DNA of 64,000 nt from a virus, in the IMG/VR virus record IMGVR_UViG_3300028666_000002, one strand, 5' to 3'. The translations under genes and the position numbers were made by a program. Shown one piece after another: positions 1 through 62,134 of the stretch (within the stretch, counting starts at the first letter, position 1; each line of letters starts with the position of its first letter). The notes beneath the pieces are model-generated. The model made no database searches. It was not told where the DNA came from and saw only the letters and a program-made list of their open reading frames with translations.

Positions 1-3000
1 GACACGTTCACTGTCATATTGGATAACAATGTAGCAAGTGAAAGTTTTCAGATCCCCCTTTATCGTATAGCGCTTGTCAATAATGGTATAGCCTCTAATC
101 CGTATACTTTTAACGCTTACGATTATTCGGCAAGTCCCACAACAAATTTTGCTTCCACCTTTGGACCAACTTTTGATTTTGCAAATTATAAAGTGTTAAT
201 GCAGGCAAAAAAGGTTCTCAAGCCAACACCGGCAAATACGGCTATTTTATATAGAGCCACCCCATGGGGAAGAAGTGGAGAGAAAATTACCGTTGAATAC
301 GCCTATCCTGCCTTTCCGAACTCTGCACTTAGCAGCACCGTTGTGGTTGATACCACCGTTGCAATAACAATTAATCTAGCTAGTGGAGCAGCTGTGACCA
401 CCGGCATTAACTCCACGACCGCTTGGAATGTCACCGTTCAGGCAAATACTCCTACGGCTGGAATTGATCAAGTCACCTATAGTTGGGCTGGAACCTATAC
501 TTTTACAATTGCCTCTTCAACGGTAACGGCTGGTTCTGTTTACAGCAATAACGGTCAACTTTTTACAGTAAACACTTCTATTTCTCCCGGCACCACCCTA
601 TCTACGACTGGTTCCGGAGGAGCACCCCTAGCCAGCGGAACGCTTACTTTTGTGAGTGGTACCGGCCCTGGCACTATTGCTTACTCTGCCAATGTTTTCT
701 CAGGAATCGGAGCGGCACCGGCCCTAACCTCGGTAATCAGCGGCAACTATGTTAATATTTCCTCACAAACTGGATTTAACATAGCGAATACTGGTGTGTT
801 TATTGTATCTTCATATGTGCCGCCCACTACTACAAGTTTTACCGTACAAATGCCGAGTGGTGTTGCTGTAGCAGGAATAGGTTTGCTAACAGCTATTAAT
901 AGTGGCATTATCTTTTATGCCTCCGTTCCTGCGTCTAATACGGCAAATGCAATTATTCTATATGTCAATGCCAATTTATCTCGATACGTATCTGCTACAT
1001 TGGCCAACAGCGGTGTGTCGAATACTGGTGCTGGAGTAGTTGTCCTAAGCACCTACGAAGATAGTGGATTTACTTATAAATACATTCAATTGTTGGACGG
1101 AATAAACTGGCTATATTCAGACAATTTGGTTGGATCTCCTCAATTCACTCTTAAAAATCCGCTTGCTTTGCCCACTGATTATGGTTATTCATTCAACAAC
1201 GGTGAATTAATAAGATTTATTCCAACCACGATGCCACAAGTAGAAGCTTTTATTTCTACATTGGCAGTTACGGGGTATACCAACGTTGGAAGTGCTGAAT
1301 TGGCAGAAAGAGGATCAGAATTAGAATTATTCACTGAAACAGTGGGTAGTTCTGGGTATATACAAATAGTTGGCGGTACAGGAAATGAGTATGGGGTACC
1401 AATTTTAAATTCTGCAAACATCCTTGATAATAATTATTGCGTAGTTTCCGTAGATAGTGTGGCCGCTCAAGGAGTTTGCAGTGATCAATGGTTTAGGCTG
1501 CAGGCTGCCGTGGCACAAGCGAAGTTGGCGGGTTTTGCATCCAATACCAGCATTACAATTGATGGGAATGTGCCCTTGGCAGGAGAATCCAAAGTTACAC
1601 TTTTGGGTAGGACTTTAACTGAAAGATATTTTGGTGAACCCAGAAATCATATTAGAACACAGGGTGACACTTTTAGAGTTGAAAAACAAGGCGATTTAGT
1701 TTGTCTTAGTTGGAATCCAAATGTTGGGACCAATCCAGTATTTGTAAAATCTTCTTTGAATTTCAATGACACTGGCGGTGGCACCGTTTCTGTAGCTTTG
1801 GTTGGTGGAGGATCTAGTGACGCTACCTATACCATTCTTTCCGGAAATGCTAACTTTACAGAACTTTCTATTGGAGACTATATCACCATTGCAGGTTTCG
1901 TTTTGCCCTATACTGCCAATAATGGATCTTTCGTCGTCACTGGCGTCTCTGATAATGGCAAAACATTACAGGTAACAAATTCTAATGCCGTAGCGGTTGG
2001 CCCTACAGTTTTTATTGCTGGAAATTTCAGTGCCACTAGCGGAGTTAGCGAAGGTGATACACTTTTTATTCCATCTCCCACTTCCAATATAAATTCTCCA
2101 TTTTATTCAGGCGTTGGCGGTCCAGTAGTTTTCTCTAGTCCATTTAATCCATTAAATCAGGGACGTTTTAGGGTTATCAGAGAATACAACAACAGTGTTT
2201 GGTTTGAAAATCCGAATGCCGTGGAAGAAGAGGTCACCTTACCATACAATCCGGTCAATCTGAACTTTGATAATACTACTGTTTTTGAAGTTATTACTAC
2301 CAACAATACTTTAAAATTAGAATGGACAGGAACCGGTACACCTCCCACGTTAGGAAATGTTACCATGGGTGATATCGTTAATTTGGGCACCGATTTTCTT
2401 GCTGGAAATCGAGGCAGTTTCATGGTATCAAGGTCTAGCGCCGCCTTGCAGCAAATTGTTCAGTTGACATTGCCGCCCGGCATAGCCTTCCCGATCTCCG
2501 GCCCAGGAGCATATTTTACTATTAACGGCATCAATGTTTCTGGAAGTGTAGTTCCATACTACGTATGGTTTCAAACTGGCGTCAATACTGATCCGGCACC
2601 ATTGGGCTATACTGGAATACAAGTCACCATATCTAGCGCATACACCAGCGTACAGGTTGCAGCCGCAACGGAGGCTGCAATAGGAGCCCTTGCTCTTTAT
2701 TTCACTGCTAATTCTTTAAATAATGTGGCAACAACAACCACGGTTGGCAGCGTAGAGGCTAGCGATCCAGTCAATGTCACTATGCCTTCACCATTTTCTA
2801 TCTTTGTAGTTCAAGAAAGTACAAAAACATTTATAGAAGCGATAAATCCTGATGCGGTGGCTCAGGCATCGGTAACTATTTCTACTAGCACCCTAACAGT
2901 TCATAGACCACAAATTCAATTCTCTGAATATGAAGCGACCGTAGTTGGCGATGTATTTGTTTCCACCGGAAGCGCTCTAACGATTCAGAACGCCGGATCA

Positions 3001-9031: not shown

Positions 9032-11941
9032 ATGGCTGTTCAAAGGCGCCTGAATGTAATTAGTGCTCAAAGAGTAGATTGCCCAGACTTGCGTTCTATT
9101 GAATCGGCCTCAAGTAACGATTTTGATCAATTAATTCAATCATTTGTCACCGGAACCCAACAGGGATATGTCGTTAGGGGCTTCAATATCATCATGACAA
9201 ATGCCATTGGAGGTCCTGCTAACGGCCTTTTGATGCAAGTTGACCCCGGCGCCGTGTTGCATATCGCCGCAAGCCAATCAGGCACCGTCCTGATGGTTCC
9301 AGCGGGCACCCCTAATCAGATACTCAATTTTACTACCAATAGCACCAATGTTGTCGGATCTTTCACTGCAGGGGCTTTAAACTACGTTACAATCGATTAT
9401 ACGCGTTATTTAGACCAAACTACTTCTGCGCAAGTCTATCTCTGGAACCCTACTTCTAATACAGAAACCGTCATAAATGCTCCTCGTGCCGAAATTTTGA
9501 CCTATACTATCAACATCTCTACGGCTACACCAACCCCAAATCTATTACCAATAGCAGCGGTATTGACAGATTCTGGTAATAATGTTCTAAGTGTTGAAGA
9601 TATCAGATGGATGCTTTGTGGATTGGGAACTGGCGGATTAACCCCTGATCCCACCTATACCTATCCGTGGACACAAGGTAGAACCCCAGGACCGACTACA
9701 GCTTCGGCGCTTGGCGTAGACCCCTTTAGTGGTGGCGACAAAAGTATTGGCTCTTTAAAAGAACTTCTCAATGCTATCATGAGTGAAATTAAACTCATGA
9801 AGGGCACGCCATACTGGAGTTCCTATGTCAGTGGCTCTGGTTCATTAATTCATTTGAGAGAAGATCTTGGTAATACTGTTATCACCGGCAGTGGAAATAT
9901 TTCTCATGGTATCTTGCCAAATGCCATTCCGCTTCTAACTACGACTGGCAATACGATTTACGCCAATAATCAACTCACTAATGTTCCCTCTGTAGTGGGA
10001 CTATCAAACGGCGATTATATAATCGGATTTGGTATAGCACCCCTGTCAACGATTGCTAGCATCGCAGGTTCTGGTCCGTACACTATAACGATGTCGGAAA
10101 ACGCTACCGCTACCGCTACCGGCTCTACGGTTTCTTTTTATTCACCAAGCGTAGTCACTTCTCCTGGACAGATCAACTGGAGCGAACCGATCAACTTACG
10201 TGTTATAGGTTCCTCGCTCGATTATGTAATTGCCGCCAATCCCACTTCAGCTGATGTTATTTTGGCCAATGATCAAGTGGCTTATATAACTTTAACAAGA
10301 GATGTTCCGGTAACGCCTAATTTGGTGTTTACCAATGCTTCGATGACAGTCACGTCAGTTGGCTCTGTTCCTTGGACCACATCTTTGCTGGCAGGCGACT
10401 TTATCAGACTTGCCTCTGATACTGATGCTCATTATTATGAAATTGGAACTATCAATAATTCTTACACCATTACGCTGACTGGTAATTTCACAGAAGCTTC
10501 TACCGGCCCCTCCGGTGTTCAAGCAGTGTATGCTTTTGGAAACTATTATGCTGCCGCACTGCCGTCCGTAGACCCGCGTGTGGTTCAGGTTTCTTCTAGA
10601 GAATCCGTCCCTTCTAGCGGAGACGTTTTTTGGTTATTCATTAGAGAGGACGACGGTCTTCCGCAGGCAAAAGTTTATATACGAGTGCTGGGATCGGAAT
10701 TAGCGTATGGAGAAAATGTTGATGTTGGTGATGGAATCTCCAATGAGTTACTCCAATATATCGGATCTCCATCTTTAAGCGCAGCATATCCGCAGTATGT
10801 CAATGCTTTAAATCCTGGTTCTGTTTCACAAATCACCCAAATCACAACTGGTCCTGGCTCTGGAATGACAGCTAGTCAGTATTTCCTTATTGATTCTTCT
10901 GCAGATGCCAGAACATACGAAATATATTGTGTGGTAAATGGCGTTGGAGTTCAAACTACTTTAGGAAATGTAAACGAATATATTGCGTGGTCAGTACTTT
11001 CCACAGATACTGCGGCTCAAACTGCAACAAAACTTGCACTTGCCTTGGAAACTACTGGAAATAGAGATTTTACAGCTACAGCTGCTAGCAATATAACTAC
11101 TGTTACCAACAATTCTGCTGGTGCAACTACTGCACCAAACAACAGTACGATGTCTCCTGCGTTAACATTCAATATAACGCAAACTGGTACTGGATTGGGA
11201 AACTTCAATATTCAAGACGGCGACAGTCTTACGCTAGCTATCAAAGAATTGGACAAGGCTATTGGCAATATTAACTTTTTTGTCAACTACAACTATGAAG
11301 AGCAAGTTACCGTTGTGTCTTCTGGAGCAACTCCACCTACTTCCATTACGGGACCGATATCTCCTGGTACCGATATTACTTTGCCAAACAATACCAGAAA
11401 TGGCGATGTAGCCCAGTATTATACGGTTAATTCAGCCAAATTAGAAGTATTCCTTAATGGTCAACTATTATTTATAAACGATGATTACGTGGAAGTTGGC
11501 GTAGCATATTCTACTAGTAATCAGATACAAACCCTGATTCCGTTAGTAGTCGGCGATGTTTTAGAATTTTGCATAGGCGCCACTGACGCTTCGGGTTCTC
11601 CCGGCCCCGTTGGCCCTCCGGGACCTGCCGGTCCTGCTGGTCCTCCAGGTCCAGGAAGTCCAGTAAATATCTCTACTAAAACTGCCAATTATACAGTTTT
11701 AACAACCGACAATGCTTTGTTGGCAAATTGTGCTAGCAATCCTATTACTTTCACGTTGCCACCGGCAGCATCTGCTGTAGGGTATGTATTTTATTTCAAA
11801 AAGATAGATTCTACGGCCAATGCAATGATCATTCAAGCCTTTGGTGCAGAATTGATTGATGGGTTGGGTTCTCAGACGAGAAATATTCAATGGGAATCGA
11901 TTACTTTGTTAACAGACGGAACATCATGGTACATATTTTAA
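9032..11941 (+). CDS. Tail/baseplate-associated fibre protein with collagen-like segment
   Basis: 969 aa beta-rich protein; (Gly-X-Y)7 run near the C-terminus followed by KTANYT..TD..LL.N.....ITFTLP.A....G..FYFKK.D domain. Confidence 0.65.
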   Translation: MAVQRRLNVISAQRVDCPDLRSIESASSNDFDQLIQSFVTGTQQGYVVRGFNIIMTNAIGGPANGLLMQVDPGAVLHIAASQSGTVLMVPAGTPNQILNFTTNSTNVVGSFTAGALNYVTIDYTRYLDQTTSAQVYLWNPTSNTETVINAPRAEILTYTINISTATPTPNLLPIAAVLTDSGNNVLSVEDIRWMLCGLGTGGLTPDPTYTYPWTQGRTPGPTTASALGVDPFSGGDKSIGSLKELLNAIMSEIKLMKGTPYWSSYVSGSGSLIHLREDLGNTVITGSGNISHGILPNAIPLLTTTGNTIYANNQLTNVPSVVGLSNGDYIIGFGIAPLSTIASIAGSGPYTITMSENATATATGSTVSFYSPSVVTSPGQINWSEPINLRVIGSSLDYVIAANPTSADVILANDQVAYITLTRDVPVTPNLVFTNASMTVTSVGSVPWTTSLLAGDFIRLASDTDAHYYEIGTINNSYTITLTGNFTEASTGPSGVQAVYAFGNYYAAALPSVDPRVVQVSSRESVPSSGDVFWLFIREDDGLPQAKVYIRVLGSELAYGENVDVGDGISNELLQYIGSPSLSAAYPQYVNALNPGSVSQITQITTGPGSGMTASQYFLIDSSADARTYEIYCVVNGVGVQTTLGNVNEYIAWSVLSTDTAAQTATKLALALETTGNRDFTATAASNITTVTNNSAGATTAPNNSTMSPALTFNITQTGTGLGNFNIQDGDSLTLAIKELDKAIGNINFFVNYNYEEQVTVVSSGATPPTSITGPISPGTDITLPNNTRNGDVAQYYTVNSAKLEVFLNGQLLFINDDYVEVGVAYSTSNQIQTLIPLVVGDVLEFCIGATDASGSPGPVGPPGPAGPAGPPGPGSPVNISTKTANYTVLTTDNALLANCASNPITFTLPPAASAVGYVFYFKKIDSTANAMIIQAFGAELIDGLGSQTRNIQWESITLLTDGTSWYIF
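11594..11656 (+). repeat. Collagen-like Gly-Pro-X repeat
   Basis: GSP GPV GPP GPA GPA GPP GPG. Confidence 0.85.
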
Positions 11942-55564: not shown

Positions 55565-57433
55565 ATGAGTGATACCACAAATAACGATATCAGTAAACAA
55601 CTAGCCGATGCGGCGAAAGCTGCTCAGACTATTTCCGAAGCCAATAAAAAGGGCGTTGTTTTCTCTATGGGGCAATCTGCTGACGGTGTTTTAGAAAAAG
55701 CAGGATATGAGCCCACTAATCCCAATTCGCAATTGATGTATACGCTTCAACAGGCGGCTGGAAGTGCTAACAAGAAAGCTCCCAGATTAGCTTTTACTGA
55801 AAATCCAGCACCTACCGATAACTACCTTGGTTTGTATAAGTCCAAAAGACGACTTCTGCCCGATGAAGTTCTTAAGCAGATTCGCCTTCAAGACCATTTA
55901 GTGGCTTCCATCCTACGTGCTCGTGGAAGTACGATGAGCCTTTTTGGCCATCTACGAAAGGATCGTTTTGATGTAGGTGTGGAATTATCGTTAAAACAAG
56001 AATTTTATGATGTTTTGACTCCAGAACAATATGAAAAAGTTACGGAGCGCATGAAAAAGGTCGAACGCCTGATTCTTAATTGCGGCCATACTGCTGGTCT
56101 AGAACACCATGATAAAATGACTTTGGCTCAATTCATGGATATTCAAACCCAGAATGGATTGAACTTCGCAAGATTCGGAACAGAAATAATTTATGATAGA
56201 GAAGCAGAACCAGATGAAGATGGGAACTATCCTTTTCATCGTTTTAGACCGGTAGACGTTGGTACTATTTATAAAACTGTTCGTAAGGGTGAATATATCG
56301 GAAACACCTTGCGAGAAACAGCTATGAAGATGCTGGAAAGCATCACTGGTGATAAACCCAAGATTGATCTACAGAAGTTAAAAGAAGATAAATATGCTTG
56401 GTTGCAAGTTATCGATGGCACTCCACGTCAAGCATTTACTCACAGAGAAATGTTAGTTTACAATCTTTTCCCATGTACTGATATCGAAATGAATGGTTAT
56501 CCAGTGTCTCCTATTGATACTGCGGTTAGCTCCATCACTACCCACATTTCTATTGATGCGTACAAGAAGCTTTACTTCCAAAACGGTAGAGCCACAAAGG
56601 GGATGTTGGTTATTAAATCGGATGAAGTTGATGAATCAGTCCTTAACAACATCAAGCTTCAATTCAATGCTTCTGTAAACAACGTTGCTAATAGCTTCCG
56701 AACGCCCATATTCGGCCTTGGGAAAGAAGACGATATCGATTGGTTGCCATTTGCTGGGGAAGGTCTGCAAGATCGTGAATTTGAATTTATGTACGATCAA
56801 ATTGCTAGAAATATCATGTCCGTATTCAGCATGTCTCCTGATGAACTTCCTGGATATAGTCACCTTTCTCGCGGAACTAACAGCCAAACGCTTTCTGAAT
56901 CAAATAATGAATTTAAACTCACAGCGGCTAGGGATACTGGATTAAGGCCTTTGATTGCAAAGTTTCAGACATTCTTTAATCAATTATTGTTTCCACTCAT
57001 AGATCCGCTGTTGGCCAAAATCTGTGAAATCAAATTCTGTGGAATTGATGCTCAATCCAAAGAACAAGAATCTACGCGTTTACAGCAAGATATGTCTACC
57101 CACATGTCTTACGATGAAGTCTTGAATGCGGTAGACAAAGATGCTGTTGGCGAAATGATGGGCGGCTTGGTTCCGTTCAATGAACGATATCAATTGATTT
57201 TAGACAAATACAAAAACGTTGGCGAGATAATGGGTACGTTTTTGGGCGATGCTTCTGCTATGGTAGACCCATTGCTTAGATATAAGCGTGACCCGTTCTT
57301 TTTGCAATGGCTACAACTTGTAGCTCAAGTTAATCCTGCAGCTGCACAAGCTTATTTCTTGCCACGTCCGTTTGCTATGGATATACTTAAAATGGTAGTC
57401 GCTGATTCATTAGAGGAAGAAGATGAAAAATAG
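55565..57433 (+). CDS. Portal protein
   Basis: GYPVSPI....SI..H......YFQNG..TKGMLVI; D.EF..MYD.IAR.I.SVF.MSPDEL; D.GLRPL. Confidence 0.85.
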   Translation: MSDTTNNDISKQLADAAKAAQTISEANKKGVVFSMGQSADGVLEKAGYEPTNPNSQLMYTLQQAAGSANKKAPRLAFTENPAPTDNYLGLYKSKRRLLPDEVLKQIRLQDHLVASILRARGSTMSLFGHLRKDRFDVGVELSLKQEFYDVLTPEQYEKVTERMKKVERLILNCGHTAGLEHHDKMTLAQFMDIQTQNGLNFARFGTEIIYDREAEPDEDGNYPFHRFRPVDVGTIYKTVRKGEYIGNTLRETAMKMLESITGDKPKIDLQKLKEDKYAWLQVIDGTPRQAFTHREMLVYNLFPCTDIEMNGYPVSPIDTAVSSITTHISIDAYKKLYFQNGRATKGMLVIKSDEVDESVLNNIKLQFNASVNNVANSFRTPIFGLGKEDDIDWLPFAGEGLQDREFEFMYDQIARNIMSVFSMSPDELPGYSHLSRGTNSQTLSESNNEFKLTAARDTGLRPLIAKFQTFFNQLLFPLIDPLLAKICEIKFCGIDAQSKEQESTRLQQDMSTHMSYDEVLNAVDKDAVGEMMGGLVPFNERYQLILDKYKNVGEIMGTFLGDASAMVDPLLRYKRDPFFLQWLQLVAQVNPAAAQAYFLPRPFAMDILKMVVADSLEEEDEK

Positions 57434-59312: not shown

Positions 59313-59492
59313 TCATCTTAAATTATCTATATCTTCATTTGCAGATATGGTTGTTACTATAAAGAATTCTACAAGTAACACAACAAATATAACCATTGAA
59401 ATCGGATATGTATTAAAAAGCCATCCCAATAAAAGTGGCACCGCGAAGGCACTAACAATAATCAGATGTACTGCCAGAATCTTTTTTAACAT
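59313..59492 (-). CDS. Small 2-TM membrane protein (59 aa, not in ORF track)
   Basis: Hand translation MLKKILAVHLIIVSAFAVPLLLGWLFNTYPISMVIFVVLLVEFFIVTT...; GAGG RBS. Confidence 0.6.
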   Translation of the reverse strand: MLKKILAVHLIIVSAFAVPLLLGWLFNTYPISMVIFVVLLVEFFIVTTISANEDIDNLR

Positions 59493-59511
59493 AACTTTCC
59501 TCTAAAATATT

Positions 59512-59820
59512 AACTACGATTCGGGATTTTGCCACTCGTGCGCCTTGTCTCCCCACATCAGTGCTAACTTAGTGGAACCTTTGTGCAGAACGCTTTCAGT
59601 ACCCAAAAATTAAGGCTCGTTTGTTTCTACCCTTAGCACGGGCCGTAGCTTCATCATGTGGCACGTCTTACGACTCAGGCTTCTCAGCCCTACCTTACGG
59701 GCAAGTACACTAGTTACCTCGCCGCCACTGACTATTAATGGGCAGGCCCCTTCACGGTCCTTTTCACCAGGCTAGTGCGGTTGTTGACTTCTAGCTGCCT
59801 CACGCATTGTACTGGCACCC
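59512..59820 (-). ncRNA. Candidate ~310-nt structured ncRNA
   Basis: GC-richer ORF-free stretch; three minus-strand GNRA hairpins; nested long-range helices and a possible pseudoknot. Confidence 0.6.
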
Positions 59821-59830
59821 AATAAAATGT

Positions 59831-59921
59831 GCTGGTGGGTCGGTGAACTGCCAACTCGAACGCGACCAATCAAAACAGAGCCGACCTGTGTATCCTCTAA
59901 GCGACTTACATCGCCACCAGC
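59831..59921 (-). ncRNA. tRNA-like RNA, family copy E (91 nt)
   Basis: GCUGGUGG/CCACCAGC, CG linker, UGUA..GA-UACA stem, GUUGG-CAGUUCA-CCGAC arm. Confidence 0.7.
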
Positions 59922-59931
59922 TAAAAATTTT

Positions 59932-60171
59932 TTTTCAAAGAATCGGAATTACACCGACTTGCCATATATGAAGTCATTGAGCATCTGCCGACTCCATCAC
60001 ATTCTTATTCCGCAAATTACTTAAATACCCAAAAGACTTAACTTGCAAGGTTTCGTTATTACCCTAATGTCACGGGTATCCACCTCGAACTCTTAGGCCA
60101 AATACCGGTGGGCTAAACGCCGTAACGGTACGTTTCATTTGCACGTGTCATGTCCACGCCGTCTTTGAAAA
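59932..60171 (-). ncRNA. tRNA-like RNA, family copy C (240 nt)
   Basis: UUUUCAAAGA/UCUUUGAAAA, CG, GCGUG-GACAUGA-CACGU, GCAAAU/AUUUGC, GUCGG-UGUAAUU-CCGAU. Confidence 0.75.
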
Positions 60172-60174
60172 TCT

Positions 60175-60232
60175 GTGCGGATCTCTCTCCGCTTGTCACG
60201 ATTTCACTCGTCGCCTACAGAGCTACTGTAAG
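60175..60232 (-). ncRNA. Small three-hairpin RNA element
   Basis: UUACAG-UAGCU-CUGUAG, ACGA-GUGAAA-UCGU, GCGGA-GAGAGA-UCCGC. Confidence 0.45.
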
Positions 60233-60239
60233 AACGGTT

Positions 60240-60495: not shown

Positions 60496-60777
60496 CTACT
60501 TAGCAGCGCCAGTATCAACCCAATTAATGATCAGATCTCTTTCAGACTGTGGCATATCATTAGTGCCTGCTGGCATTTCCTTAGTATACACTTTTTGTTT
60601 GATTTGTAACCTAAAATTATAAGCTTCTTCATACTTTTGCCAGTTCTTTCCAGCCATATAATCATGACATCTAGAGCATCGATTTTTGAAGATAGCTTGG
60701 ATGTCTTCTGTATAAGTGGGATTTCGGGCATATCCCAATGAATTGATTAGTAAAATAGCAAGAATTGTTTTTTTCAC
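60496..60777 (-). CDS. Secreted monoheme c-type cytochrome
   Basis: GGAGG RBS + GTG start, signal peptide KKTILAILLINSLGYA, PTY..DI..IF..RCSRCH (CxxCH), distal MP motifs, ER.LI..WV..GA. Confidence 0.8.
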   Translation of the reverse strand: MKKTILAILLINSLGYARNPTYTEDIQAIFKNRCSRCHDYMAGKNWQKYEEAYNFRLQIKQKVYTKEMPAGTNDMPQSERDLIINWVDTGAAK

Positions 60778-60795
60778 ATAGTCCTCCAAATAAAG

Positions 60796-60971
60796 TGCTG
60801 ATGAGTCGGTCTTATTCCTAGCTTGCGGTTAATTCCGCTTACTTTTTGCCGCGCTCAGTAGATATGTCTGGTCAAACCATATTCTACTTCCCCGTATGTG
60901 AATTTGCGGACCAGAATCGTCGGACTTTCGTCCCTAACATACGTGCGTGTCCTTCCACGCCGCCACCAGCA
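60796..60971 (-). ncRNA. tRNA-like RNA, family copy B (176 nt)
   Basis: UGCUGGUGG/UCAUCAGCA, CG, GCGUG-GAAGGA-CACGC, CGUAUGU/ACAUACG containing GGAC-GAAA-GUCC. Confidence 0.75.
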
Positions 60972-60976
60972 TCTAA

Positions 60977-60985
60977 ACTATATCA
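60977..60985 (-). promoter_or_regulatory. TGATATAGT extended -10 motif directly upstream of RNA copy B
   Basis: The -10 hexamer TATAGT ends 5 nt before the 5' end of the terminal stem at 60971. Confidence 0.55.
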
Positions 60986-62134
60986 TTCATAATCTCTAAT
61001 TGCAATTCCTACAGGAAATCGCGGAACTTTGGCTGCCCCAGTAAGGCCTTGGTATTTAACTGTAAGTTGCTTGTTCTGCCAAAGTTTATGATTTTCAAAG
61101 TATTCTTTGAGCTTATCTGTCTCTCCAGACATTTTAGCAAAAAATTCTTTCCCATCTGTCGTGACGCACACAAAAGCACCAACGTGTCCTGCGAGTTTTC
61201 CACGACCTTCATCAATTCCAATAATTTTGAATTCAGCATCGTCAAACTCCTTTACTTTTAACAAATCGTAACTGCGTTTATTTACATAAAGACCCGCTTC
61301 ATTGCGCACCATCGCACCTTCGTATCCTTCTTTCTTAAATTTGTTAAAACTATCAATGACTTGAGTTTCATCATATATTCTGATAGTCTCTACCACTTTT
61401 AAATATGATAGATGATTTTCCATAATCTTATCACGTAAATATTTAGATAAACTCATTTCTCTACTATAAAAAGTAGACTCGTTAATAACATCATAAATAT
61501 GATATTGAACGTTCAGATACCCATCTTCTGGATCTTCTTTTCTAACGGCAGATACTATTTTTTCAAAATCATTCTTAAAATCATGATTATACAGCTCACC
61601 ATCTAAAAACAAATGACCATCTATATGCATACCAGTTAAGGTTTCTATATCTTTAACAATATGTGGCATGGAGGTGATTTGTTTCCTGGTACGAGACCAG
61701 AGAGTACATTTACCATCTTTTAGAATGGCAATGCAGCGAATGCCATCTAATTTGGGCTGTACATAGGCCGGATACTTTACCTTATGTCCATGATCGGTAA
61801 ATTTGTGAGCTAACATAGGGACAATGCCACCTTCAATTAGATCGTCAAGCTTATCATTTTCCGCATCTTTGATAGATTCGACATATCCCTTTTTCTTTTG
61901 TTTTTCCCATTTAGCCTGCGCTTCTGCTTCCGCTTGTTGTAAGGCTGTTGTTTGGTTCTTTTTACCGATATTTTTGCCTTTCTCGATATAGTCAGTAGTT
62001 GTTTGTGGACTATCAGTGCCTAACTGCCCATAAGTGGTTTCAAACCAAGCAATTCCATCATATTCGCCAGTTTCAATTTCCCAAAATTGAATGGAGCCAG
62101 AATTATTTTTCTTATAAATTATAGGTAATTTCAT
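60983..62134 (-). CDS. ATP-dependent DNA ligase with N-terminal WGR-like domain
   Basis: PMLA, QPKLDGIR (adenylated Lys), LDGELY, EGAMVR, LLKVK, PRFPV. Confidence 0.92.
   Translation of the reverse strand: MKLPIIYKKNNSGSIQFWEIETGEYDGIAWFETTYGQLGTDSPQTTTDYIEKGKNIGKKNQTTALQQAEAEAQAKWEKQKKKGYVESIKDAENDKLDDLIEGGIVPMLAHKFTDHGHKVKYPAYVQPKLDGIRCIAILKDGKCTLWSRTRKQITSMPHIVKDIETLTGMHIDGHLFLDGELYNHDFKNDFEKIVSAVRKEDPEDGYLNVQYHIYDVINESTFYSREMSLSKYLRDKIMENHLSYLKVVETIRIYDETQVIDSFNKFKKEGYEGAMVRNEAGLYVNKRSYDLLKVKEFDDAEFKIIGIDEGRGKLAGHVGAFVCVTTDGKEFFAKMSGETDKLKEYFENHKLWQNKQLTVKYQGLTGAAKVPRFPVGIAIRDYE

Follow-up and report, generated by a model that had tools for sequence, protein, structure and literature searches.

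A GC-rich non-coding block in the RNA island of a soil phage is probably a remodelled member of the island's tRNA-shaped RNA family

Results

The RNA island and its surroundings

In the window (the whole 64-kb stretch of phage DNA analysed here), the portal gene and the head genes meet an island of minus-strand genes encoding a 2OG-Fe(II) oxygenase, endonuclease VII, an ATP-dependent DNA ligase and several short membrane-protein ORFs (Table 1). The ligase protein is 100% identical on contigs of up to 165,937 bp, and soil and peat metagenomes are the main source of its relatives, which number in the thousands at 60-67% identity. Several of these relatives have true tRNA genes near the ligase. 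ARAGORN finds none in the window, which instead has GC-rich, ORF-free elements with long terminal stems, here called A to F.

Two other genes of the island have recognizable relatives. P0122, a PQ-loop/SemiSWEET-like membrane protein, has homologues 57-78% identical in other phage contigs, where they are packed into tight operons immediately before the DNA ligase or neighbour a macro-domain gene; in the window, P0122 has been relocated and lies beyond the RNA array. Directly after the ligase lies a gene for a secreted monohaem c-type cytochrome, with a weak match to Pfam Cytochrome_CBB3 below the curated cut-off. Its homologues occupy the same position in L006/L021 and L048.

The stretch examined here (hereafter the target) is bounded by A/U-rich spacers, ACAUUUUAUU at the 5' end and AAUAUUUUAGAGG at the 3' end. 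The flanking genes have 31-36% GC. The target exceeds the genes around it by 13-20 points, a GC level that it shares with the other RNA elements of the island. In none of the frames does an open stretch between two stops exceed 58 codons, and the density of stop codons matches that expected for non-coding sequence of equal composition. The target is a genuine, compositionally distinct non-coding block, and it does look derived from an RNA gene, being GC-rich, ORF-free and set between A/U-rich spacers like its neighbours. Neither internal repeats nor copies elsewhere in the 64-kb window were found. Predictions placed neither promoter nor terminator within the target, which makes its co-transcription with the array probable.

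Table 1. Positions of the target, its parts and its neighbours in the window.
Feature	Position	Strand	Remarks
Portal gene	55565-57433	+	
P0122	59039-59299	-	86 residues
59-codon membrane-peptide ORF	59313-59492	-	Shine-Dalgarno GAGGA; AUG 20 nt after the target
Target	59512-59820	-	309 nt, ORF-free, 52% GC, 59% purine
3' flank of target	59512-59650	-	fold z +0.63 to +1.30, no better than shuffles
Cloverleaf core of target	59651-59736	-	86 nt; sole part of the target that appears to fold better than chance (post hoc z)
5' flank of target	59737-59820	-	fold z +0.76, no better than shuffles; first 8 nt predicted to pair with 59534-59523 in the 3' flank, not with the partner drawn in the sequence-only reading
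Degenerate counterpart of the two-hairpin leader	59741-59771	-	from alignment; GTGAAA block
Element E	59831-59921	-	tRNA-shaped, directly upstream of the target; MFE frequency 0.13
Neighbouring unit	59922-60239	-	two-hairpin leader plus 240-nt tRNA-shaped copy C; highest alignment z against the target among 15 comparators
Two-hairpin leader	60174-60227	-	
c-type cytochrome gene	60496-60789	-	
Element B	60899-60974	-	
Sigma-70-like promoter	60977-61005	-	TTGCAA-17-TATAGT with TG (extended -10); array head, just before element B
ATP-dependent DNA ligase	60983-62134	-	

Folding of the whole target

A sequence-only reading had described the target as a GNRA-rich, possibly pseudoknotted RNA and as a candidate for a large structured non-coding RNA or ribozyme. 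All the segments quoted in that description lie on the minus strand where it had placed them and are complementary to their partners. These are the strands closing a 5' domain (GGGUGCCAGUACA, 59820-59808, with UGUACUUGCCC, 59709-59699), the GNRA hairpins at 59693-59700, 59678-59689 and 59665-59674, the CCACAU/AUGUGG and GUGCUAA/UUAGCAC pairings, and the putative pseudoknot strands (AGCUACGG, 59650-59643, with UCGUAGUU, 59519-59512).

We compared the target with dinucleotide shuffles. Its minimum free energy (MFE) is -86.1 kcal/mol, compared to -94.5 +/- 5.1 kcal/mol for the shuffled sequences (z = +1.64), and 95 of 100 shuffles fold as well or better. The plus strand gave a z of +1.51, and the sub-domains drawn in the sequence-only reading values between +0.6 and +1.4. 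With the identical tool, the E. coli RNase P RNA (377 nt), which served as positive control, reached a z of -2.98, and the neighbouring elements, all with well-defined ensembles, scored -2.16 (E), -1.87 (D), -1.58 (B), -2.76 (F) and -1.61 (C). The target also contains fewer uninterrupted stems of at least 6 bp than its shuffles (53 vs 73 +/- 9.5), a single 7-bp Watson-Crick stem where 1.8 are expected, and GNRA hairpins at a frequency that is not enriched (P = 0.14-0.24). Its ensemble diversity is 120 and the MFE frequency close to 0. Only two features exceed a probability of 0.5 in the full-length ensemble, namely a pairing of the two ends (59820-59813 with 59534-59523, 8 bp, probability 0.58) and a central four-way junction.

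The long helices proposed are hardly populated in this ensemble. The helix closing the 5' domain has a probability of about 0; of the nested helices of the 3' domain, CCACAU/AUGUGG is likewise found at about 0 and GUGCUAA/UUAGCAC at 0.05, while the 'pseudoknot' helix reaches 0.17. The nested model as a whole lies 14 kcal/mol above the MFE. Two of the three consecutive GNRA hairpins, those with the GAGA and the second GUAA loop, do form with a probability of about 0.6, as arms of a cloverleaf; the third, CC-GUAA-GG, is displaced by another arm of the same cloverleaf. This hairpin and the helix closing the 5' domain are in any case mutually exclusive, because both need the same two C residues. 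Folding no better than dinucleotide shuffles had been named beforehand as an outcome speaking against a large structured RNA, and this is the outcome obtained. A single large pseudoknotted RNA or ribozyme is therefore unsupported. Complementary segments that are spotted by eye in a purine- and GC-rich sequence can lie fully within chance.

A cloverleaf core with the signature of the island's RNA family

The four-way junction corresponds to the core listed in Table 1. Folded alone, the core has a z of -2.17 (7 of 200 shuffles), a post hoc value, as the sub-window was chosen after the centroid had been seen. Its pair probabilities in the full-length ensemble range from 0.52 to 0.76, which makes it the best-defined part of the target. 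A closing helix of 9 bp with a single bulged A (59732-59724/59662-59653) holds three arms: arm 1, GGCGAG/CUUGCC with a 12-nt loop (59723-59718/59705-59700); arm 2, GGGCU-GAGA-AGCCU (59690-59677); and arm 3, GUC-GUAA-GAC (59674-59665), which lies 2 nt from the 3' strand of the closing helix. The two GNRA tetraloops thereby occupy the positions of the anticodon loop and the T loop of a tRNA. No tRNA or tmRNA was detected in the target by ARAGORN, either at default settings or with thresholds relaxed to 80%, with and without introns. The idea that the stretch may be two adjacent RNAs survives as far as its composite nature is concerned, in that the 86-nt cloverleaf appears to fold beyond chance and its flanks do not.

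The 5' start of the core, GUCAGUGG-CG-GCGAG, carries the family signature stem-CG-GCGNG. The same junction is found in elements A, B and C, as stem-CGGCGUGG, and in D, as stem-CGGCGUUG. Typical of the family is a terminal helix of 8-10 bp that runs straight to the CG linker. In the core, this helix is GUCAGUGG(C)/(G)CCAC-A-UGAU, and its bulge makes it less clean than in A to D. The linker is directly followed by a D-like hairpin, GCGAG-12 nt-CUUGC (family pattern GCGNG...CNCGC), whose loop is longer than those of B, C and D. A survey of all 54 CGGCG sites, covering both strands of the window, showed a terminal helix running to the CG together with a hairpin right after it in B, C, D and the core alone; as a background, 3.2% of arbitrary positions satisfy this stem-plus-hairpin rule. 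The core lacks a T-arm-like hairpin (about 5 bp, 7-nt loop) directly beside the 3' strand of its terminal helix.

A covariance model, R1, was built from the core alone and searched in 316 kb comprising the window and related loci. Its best non-self match, with 13.6 bits, falls on the 5' end of element B and runs in register from the first model position. When the search was confined to the 5.2-kb island with filters off, B was recovered with 13.5 bits and an E value of 0.017, and D and F were also among the top five matches. Between the core and B, both sides of the pairs have changed in the D-like arm (GCGAG/CUUGC vs GCGUG/CACGC) and in arm 2 (GGGCU/AGCCU vs GGAC/GUCC), and 7 of the 9 positions are identical in the linker between the arms (CGUAAGGUA in the core, CGUAUGUUA in B). 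Local alignment of the target to B alone was not significant (z 1.1).

Kinship with the adjacent unit

Over almost its whole length, the region 59505-59830 (326 nt) is collinear with the neighbouring unit of leader and copy C (318 nt). In global alignments, this unit ranked at the top of 15 comparators, with a z of 2.9-3.2 (4 of 400 and 1 of 200 shuffles); the other 14, which included the other elements, RNAs of related phages, rnpB and coding DNA, did not exceed 2.3. After correction for 15 comparisons, P is about 0.08-0.15. The alignment thus yields a weak to modest hint of paralogy, which would fail a strict multiple-test correction, and nhmmer did not report the target when the C unit was used as the query.

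Exact blocks occur in the same order in both sequences: GTGAAA, CGGCG, TAAGA, CCCGTG, AGGGTA, TTTTGGGTA and TGGCAA. Both hairpins of the leader have aligned counterparts in the target, CCU-GGUGAAA-AGG for ACGA-GUGAAA-UCGU and GGACC-GUGAAG-GGGCC for GCGGA-GAGAGA-UCCGC. Further downstream, the target hairpin GCCC-GUGCUAA-GGGU (59643-59629) is the counterpart of ACCC-GUGACAUUA-GGGU, a predicted hairpin of copy C, the block UUUUGGGUA is common to C and the 3' flank of the target, and the end strand UCGUAGUU aligns with UCUUUGAA, the 3' strand of the terminal stem of C.

Copy C has a well-defined tRNA-like shape (z -1.6), with a centroid close to the MFE structure. The helices that make up this shape, i.e. 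its terminal stem, the long GCAAAU/AUUUGC helix in the anticodon position and the T arm, are non-complementary or deleted at the aligned positions of the target; of the T arm, it is the 5' strand that is deleted. A copy C that folds well next to a target that does not is the pattern that a relaxed duplicate would show. The lack of a T arm with a 7-nt loop in the core and the bulge in its closing helix speak against the target as a paralogue. Decay in a genome of 39% GC should lead to a drift towards A+T, so the 52% GC of the target point to a recent origin or to continuing constraint and argue against long-standing neutrality. That none of the long-range helices has survived speaks against a conserved ancestral fold.

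Related RNA elements in other phages

Some RNA elements of the island recur elsewhere. The two-hairpin leader, GGCGACGAGUGAAAUCGUGACAAGCGGnGAGAGAnCCGCAC, is 90.7% identical to positions 288-341 of Rhizobium phage B1VFA (L074, MT770738) and is also kept in L013 at about 2845-2886. Only 2 nt separate it from the annotated tRNA-Cys that follows in B1VFA; the copy in the window precedes the tRNA-shaped copy C. The second hairpin shows a compensatory change from A-U to G-C. This leader may serve phage tRNA(-like) genes as a conserved element, either for processing or close to the promoter. The 5' end of element B, GCUGGUGGCGGCGUGGAAGGACACGC, is 93-96% conserved in two related phage contigs (L001, 808-836; L004, 3497-3521), so other phages have the tRNA-shaped family, too.

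Other non-coding RNAs were seen in the related contigs. L009 has an ORF-free RNA of 374 nt directly after a tRNA-Arg (9272-9645, plus strand; z -2.81, 1 of 100 shuffles), which has no match in Rfam and contains GAGAGGAAGUUCCG...GGGUGCCAG, a succession that recalls CR-I/P7 of RNase P; RF00010 and the rnpB profile HMM left it unmatched. A 155-nt homologue lies just upstream of the ligase in L012 (5751-5905, plus strand; nhmmer E 6e-26). In L001, a non-coding RNA closes an ncRNA array (1213-1515, plus strand). It starts with GGGUGCCAGCAA, like the target, and ends at a terminator, and its middle matches 2877-2959 (plus strand) of L013 with an E value of 1e-7. The segment common to the L001 and L013 RNAs, GUGGUGAGG-AUGGCCUGCUGGCUACUUUU, could encode a mini-ORF (MACWLL...) behind a Shine-Dalgarno-like GAGG.

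Search for homologues of the target

For the target itself, about 100 related phage loci yielded no homologue. The searches comprised blastn against the INPHARED phages, blastn and nhmmer against 13 IMG/VR and 56 metagenome loci around relatives of the ligase, the whole records of ten related phages by BLAST and of five by the covariance model of the core, and the contigs with homologues of the downstream PQ-loop protein, which held nothing resembling it. Two pattern scans of IMG/VR returned chance matches only. In the most syntenic relatives, in which the ligase is followed by the cytochrome, tightly packed small ORFs lie where the target would sit. Independent assemblies of the same phage were recovered from two other public samples (L072, Logan SRR8464959; L073, ENA ERZ27245401). 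Over 3.4-5.8 kb, a span with the entire RNA island, neither differs from the window at any position (100% identity), so they provide no population variants of the target.

Two candidate matches were discarded. The start GGGTGCCAGCAA, common to the target and the non-coding RNAs of L001 and L009, is a coincidence of 9-12 nt, at most a 5' motif, and does not extend into any further alignment. A 20-nt match in L088 proved to be a terminator hairpin with the same GUAA loop.

Known families and alternative readings

A search with the 4227 families of Rfam 15 gave no match at the gathering score for the window, its 10-kb end or a 381-nt stretch around the target, and lowering the threshold to E <=10 for the 381 nt yielded noise only (snoRNA sR19, 11 bits). 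Together with a negative rnpB profile HMM, this bears out the earlier impression that the target is not RNase P RNA, SRP RNA, 6S RNA, an intron or a known riboswitch. We nevertheless considered that the phage might have a relic or mimic of bacterial RNase P RNA, comprising the specificity domain and part of the catalytic domain, since the motifs GGGUGCCAG, GGUGAAAAGG, GAGGUAAC and CUACGGCCCGUGCUAAGGGUAG are reminiscent of regions conserved in class-A RNase P and follow the RF00010 consensus in approximately the same order. In local alignment with rnpB of E. coli, the best match spans hairpin P17 and the GGU of L15 (a score reached by 4 of 300 shuffles), and a tRNA-like array would be a natural partner for such an RNA. 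Against this, RF00010, whose gathering score is 100 bits and which gives E. coli rnpB 318.6 bits with the same tool, left the target unmatched even at E <=10 on 381 nt, and it also had no match in ten related phage records. A profile HMM of 73 diverse type-A rnpB genes recovered held-out rnpB genes with E values of 1e-34 to 1e-106 and reported nothing in the target at E <=100 with relaxed filters. The global alignment to rnpB reached a z of 1.3-1.6 only, CR-I (GAGGAAAGUCC) and the 5' strand of P4 are found neither in the target nor directly upstream, and copy C, with its ACCC-GUGACAUUA-GGGU hairpin as counterpart, offers a better explanation of the 'P17-like' hairpin. The sole GAAAGUCC of the island lies 1.1 kb away in element B and is non-significant; B also contains a CR-I-like string, GGGACGAAAGUCCG, that is non-significant against the rnpB profile. 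With both the covariance model and the profile HMM negative, this lead was closed, and we give it hardly any credence. For one large structured, possibly pseudoknotted RNA or ribozyme of a new class, about 310 nt in length, one can cite the presence of every quoted complementary segment, a purine- and GC-rich composition that resembles large structured RNAs, the 8-bp pairing of both ends, and a phage RNA island, which is the setting of GOLLD and ROOL (PMC5737381). But a real ribozyme of 377 nt stands out clearly in the tool that places the target on the wrong side of its shuffles, the ensemble is diffuse, the proposed helices are hardly populated and their nested model is far from the MFE, stems and GNRA loops occur at or below chance, and related phages hold no homologue. 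Such an RNA is highly improbable here.

The target could also be an unrelated, lineage-specific leader or spacer, i.e. a long 5' UTR of the ORF group formed by the 59-codon, the PQ-loop and a 62-codon ORF, with no discrete fold and a merely compositional likeness to C instead of kinship. This would suit the lack of an internal promoter or terminator, the Shine-Dalgarno sequence and start codon 20 nt downstream, and the marginal statistics of the paralogy. Positive fold z values on both strands and fewer stems than in the shuffles are what an accessible leader would show, and the downstream ORF is an orphan like the target. However, other ORFs of the island start no more than about 20 nt from the preceding RNA element, which would make a leader of 338 nt an exception; 52% GC is unlike other untranslated or coding DNA nearby; and the signature of the core and the model matches to B, D and F would have to be coincidence. 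We regard this explanation as unlikely, if worth keeping in mind. A decayed protein-coding gene or a captured fragment of foreign (host) DNA would account for the GC excess over the surrounding genes and for a target that is an orphan in every collection searched. But the six read-through frames have no Pfam match at E <=1, the frame with the fewest stops is unmatched among 1.84 billion representatives, the stop density fits non-coding sequence of such composition, a 20-mer scan of the genomes of 185,579 species returned nothing, and the other RNA elements of the island are equally GC-rich. This origin, too, appears improbable.

Discussion

The target is probably a seventh, remodelled member of the tRNA-shaped RNA family represented in the island by elements A to F. 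More specifically, we read it, with about an even chance, as a diverged and partly decayed tandem paralogue of the adjacent unit of leader and copy C. The target would have arisen through a local duplication within the tRNA-like island of the phage and would since have partly decayed or been remodelled. The island of this phage of about 166 kb from soil seems to grow via local duplication and divergence of tRNA-like units.

The predicted promoter upstream of element B would allow transcription of the island as one array. Processing of phage tRNA clusters by host tRNA-end enzymes is established. By analogy, these enzymes (RNase P; RNase Z or E) might cut the array at its tRNA-shaped elements, and element E is a likely processing point that would free the 5' end of the target. 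Two outcomes can be envisaged. The target may end up as a short-lived spacer or leader ahead of the 59-codon ORF, which encodes an orphan protein for which no relatives were found, or the core, if it is still recognized, may give rise to a small stable tRNA-shaped RNA. In our model, the 86-nt cloverleaf would be the sole candidate for a functional part of the target. It is conceivable, if rather unlikely, that the core is still live and represents a minimal form of the tRNA-shaped RNAs of a phage family, with flanks that are the remodelled remains of a larger ancestor. A live core could then mark a site for host tRNA-end processing, by which the membrane-peptide mRNA downstream would be freed, or, alternatively, mimic a tRNA or act as a decoy.

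A new large ribozyme-like RNA would have been important, and the evidence does not carry that reading. The objects of greater interest are the family of tRNA-shaped RNAs and the conserved leader shared with the Rhizobium phage.

Among the sequences with which the target can be compared, the C unit is the closest. It lies in the same island on the same strand, is of similar length, equally GC-rich and shares the collinear blocks, and the stem-CG-GCGNG start, the D-like arm, the inner hairpin and the NCCC-loop-GGGU hairpin are found in the target, too. In contrast, the 10-bp terminal stem, the GCAAAU/AUUUGC helix and the T arm of C are without a counterpart in the target, which closes a far smaller cloverleaf with a different 3' strand. 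Overall, the target folds worse than its shuffles, whereas elements C, B, D, E and F fold better than theirs. The likeness to class-A RNase P RNA (RF00010) is limited to a few short purine-rich motifs and one hairpin, whereas P1-P4 are missing and both the covariance model and the HMM fail. GOLLD and ROOL are large non-coding RNAs that are often found in phages and prophages near tRNA genes (PMC5737381). They average about 580-800 nt and have many conserved multistem junctions with strong covariation, while the target neither matches them in Rfam nor shows any sign of a large stable fold. The T4 species 1 and 2 RNAs (rnaC/rnaD) are stable non-tRNA RNAs inside a phage tRNA cluster. RNAs of this type are small, of unknown function, have tRNA-like ends and are processed from the cluster transcript. 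The target may be likened to them, although the island described here has no tRNA detectable by ARAGORN.
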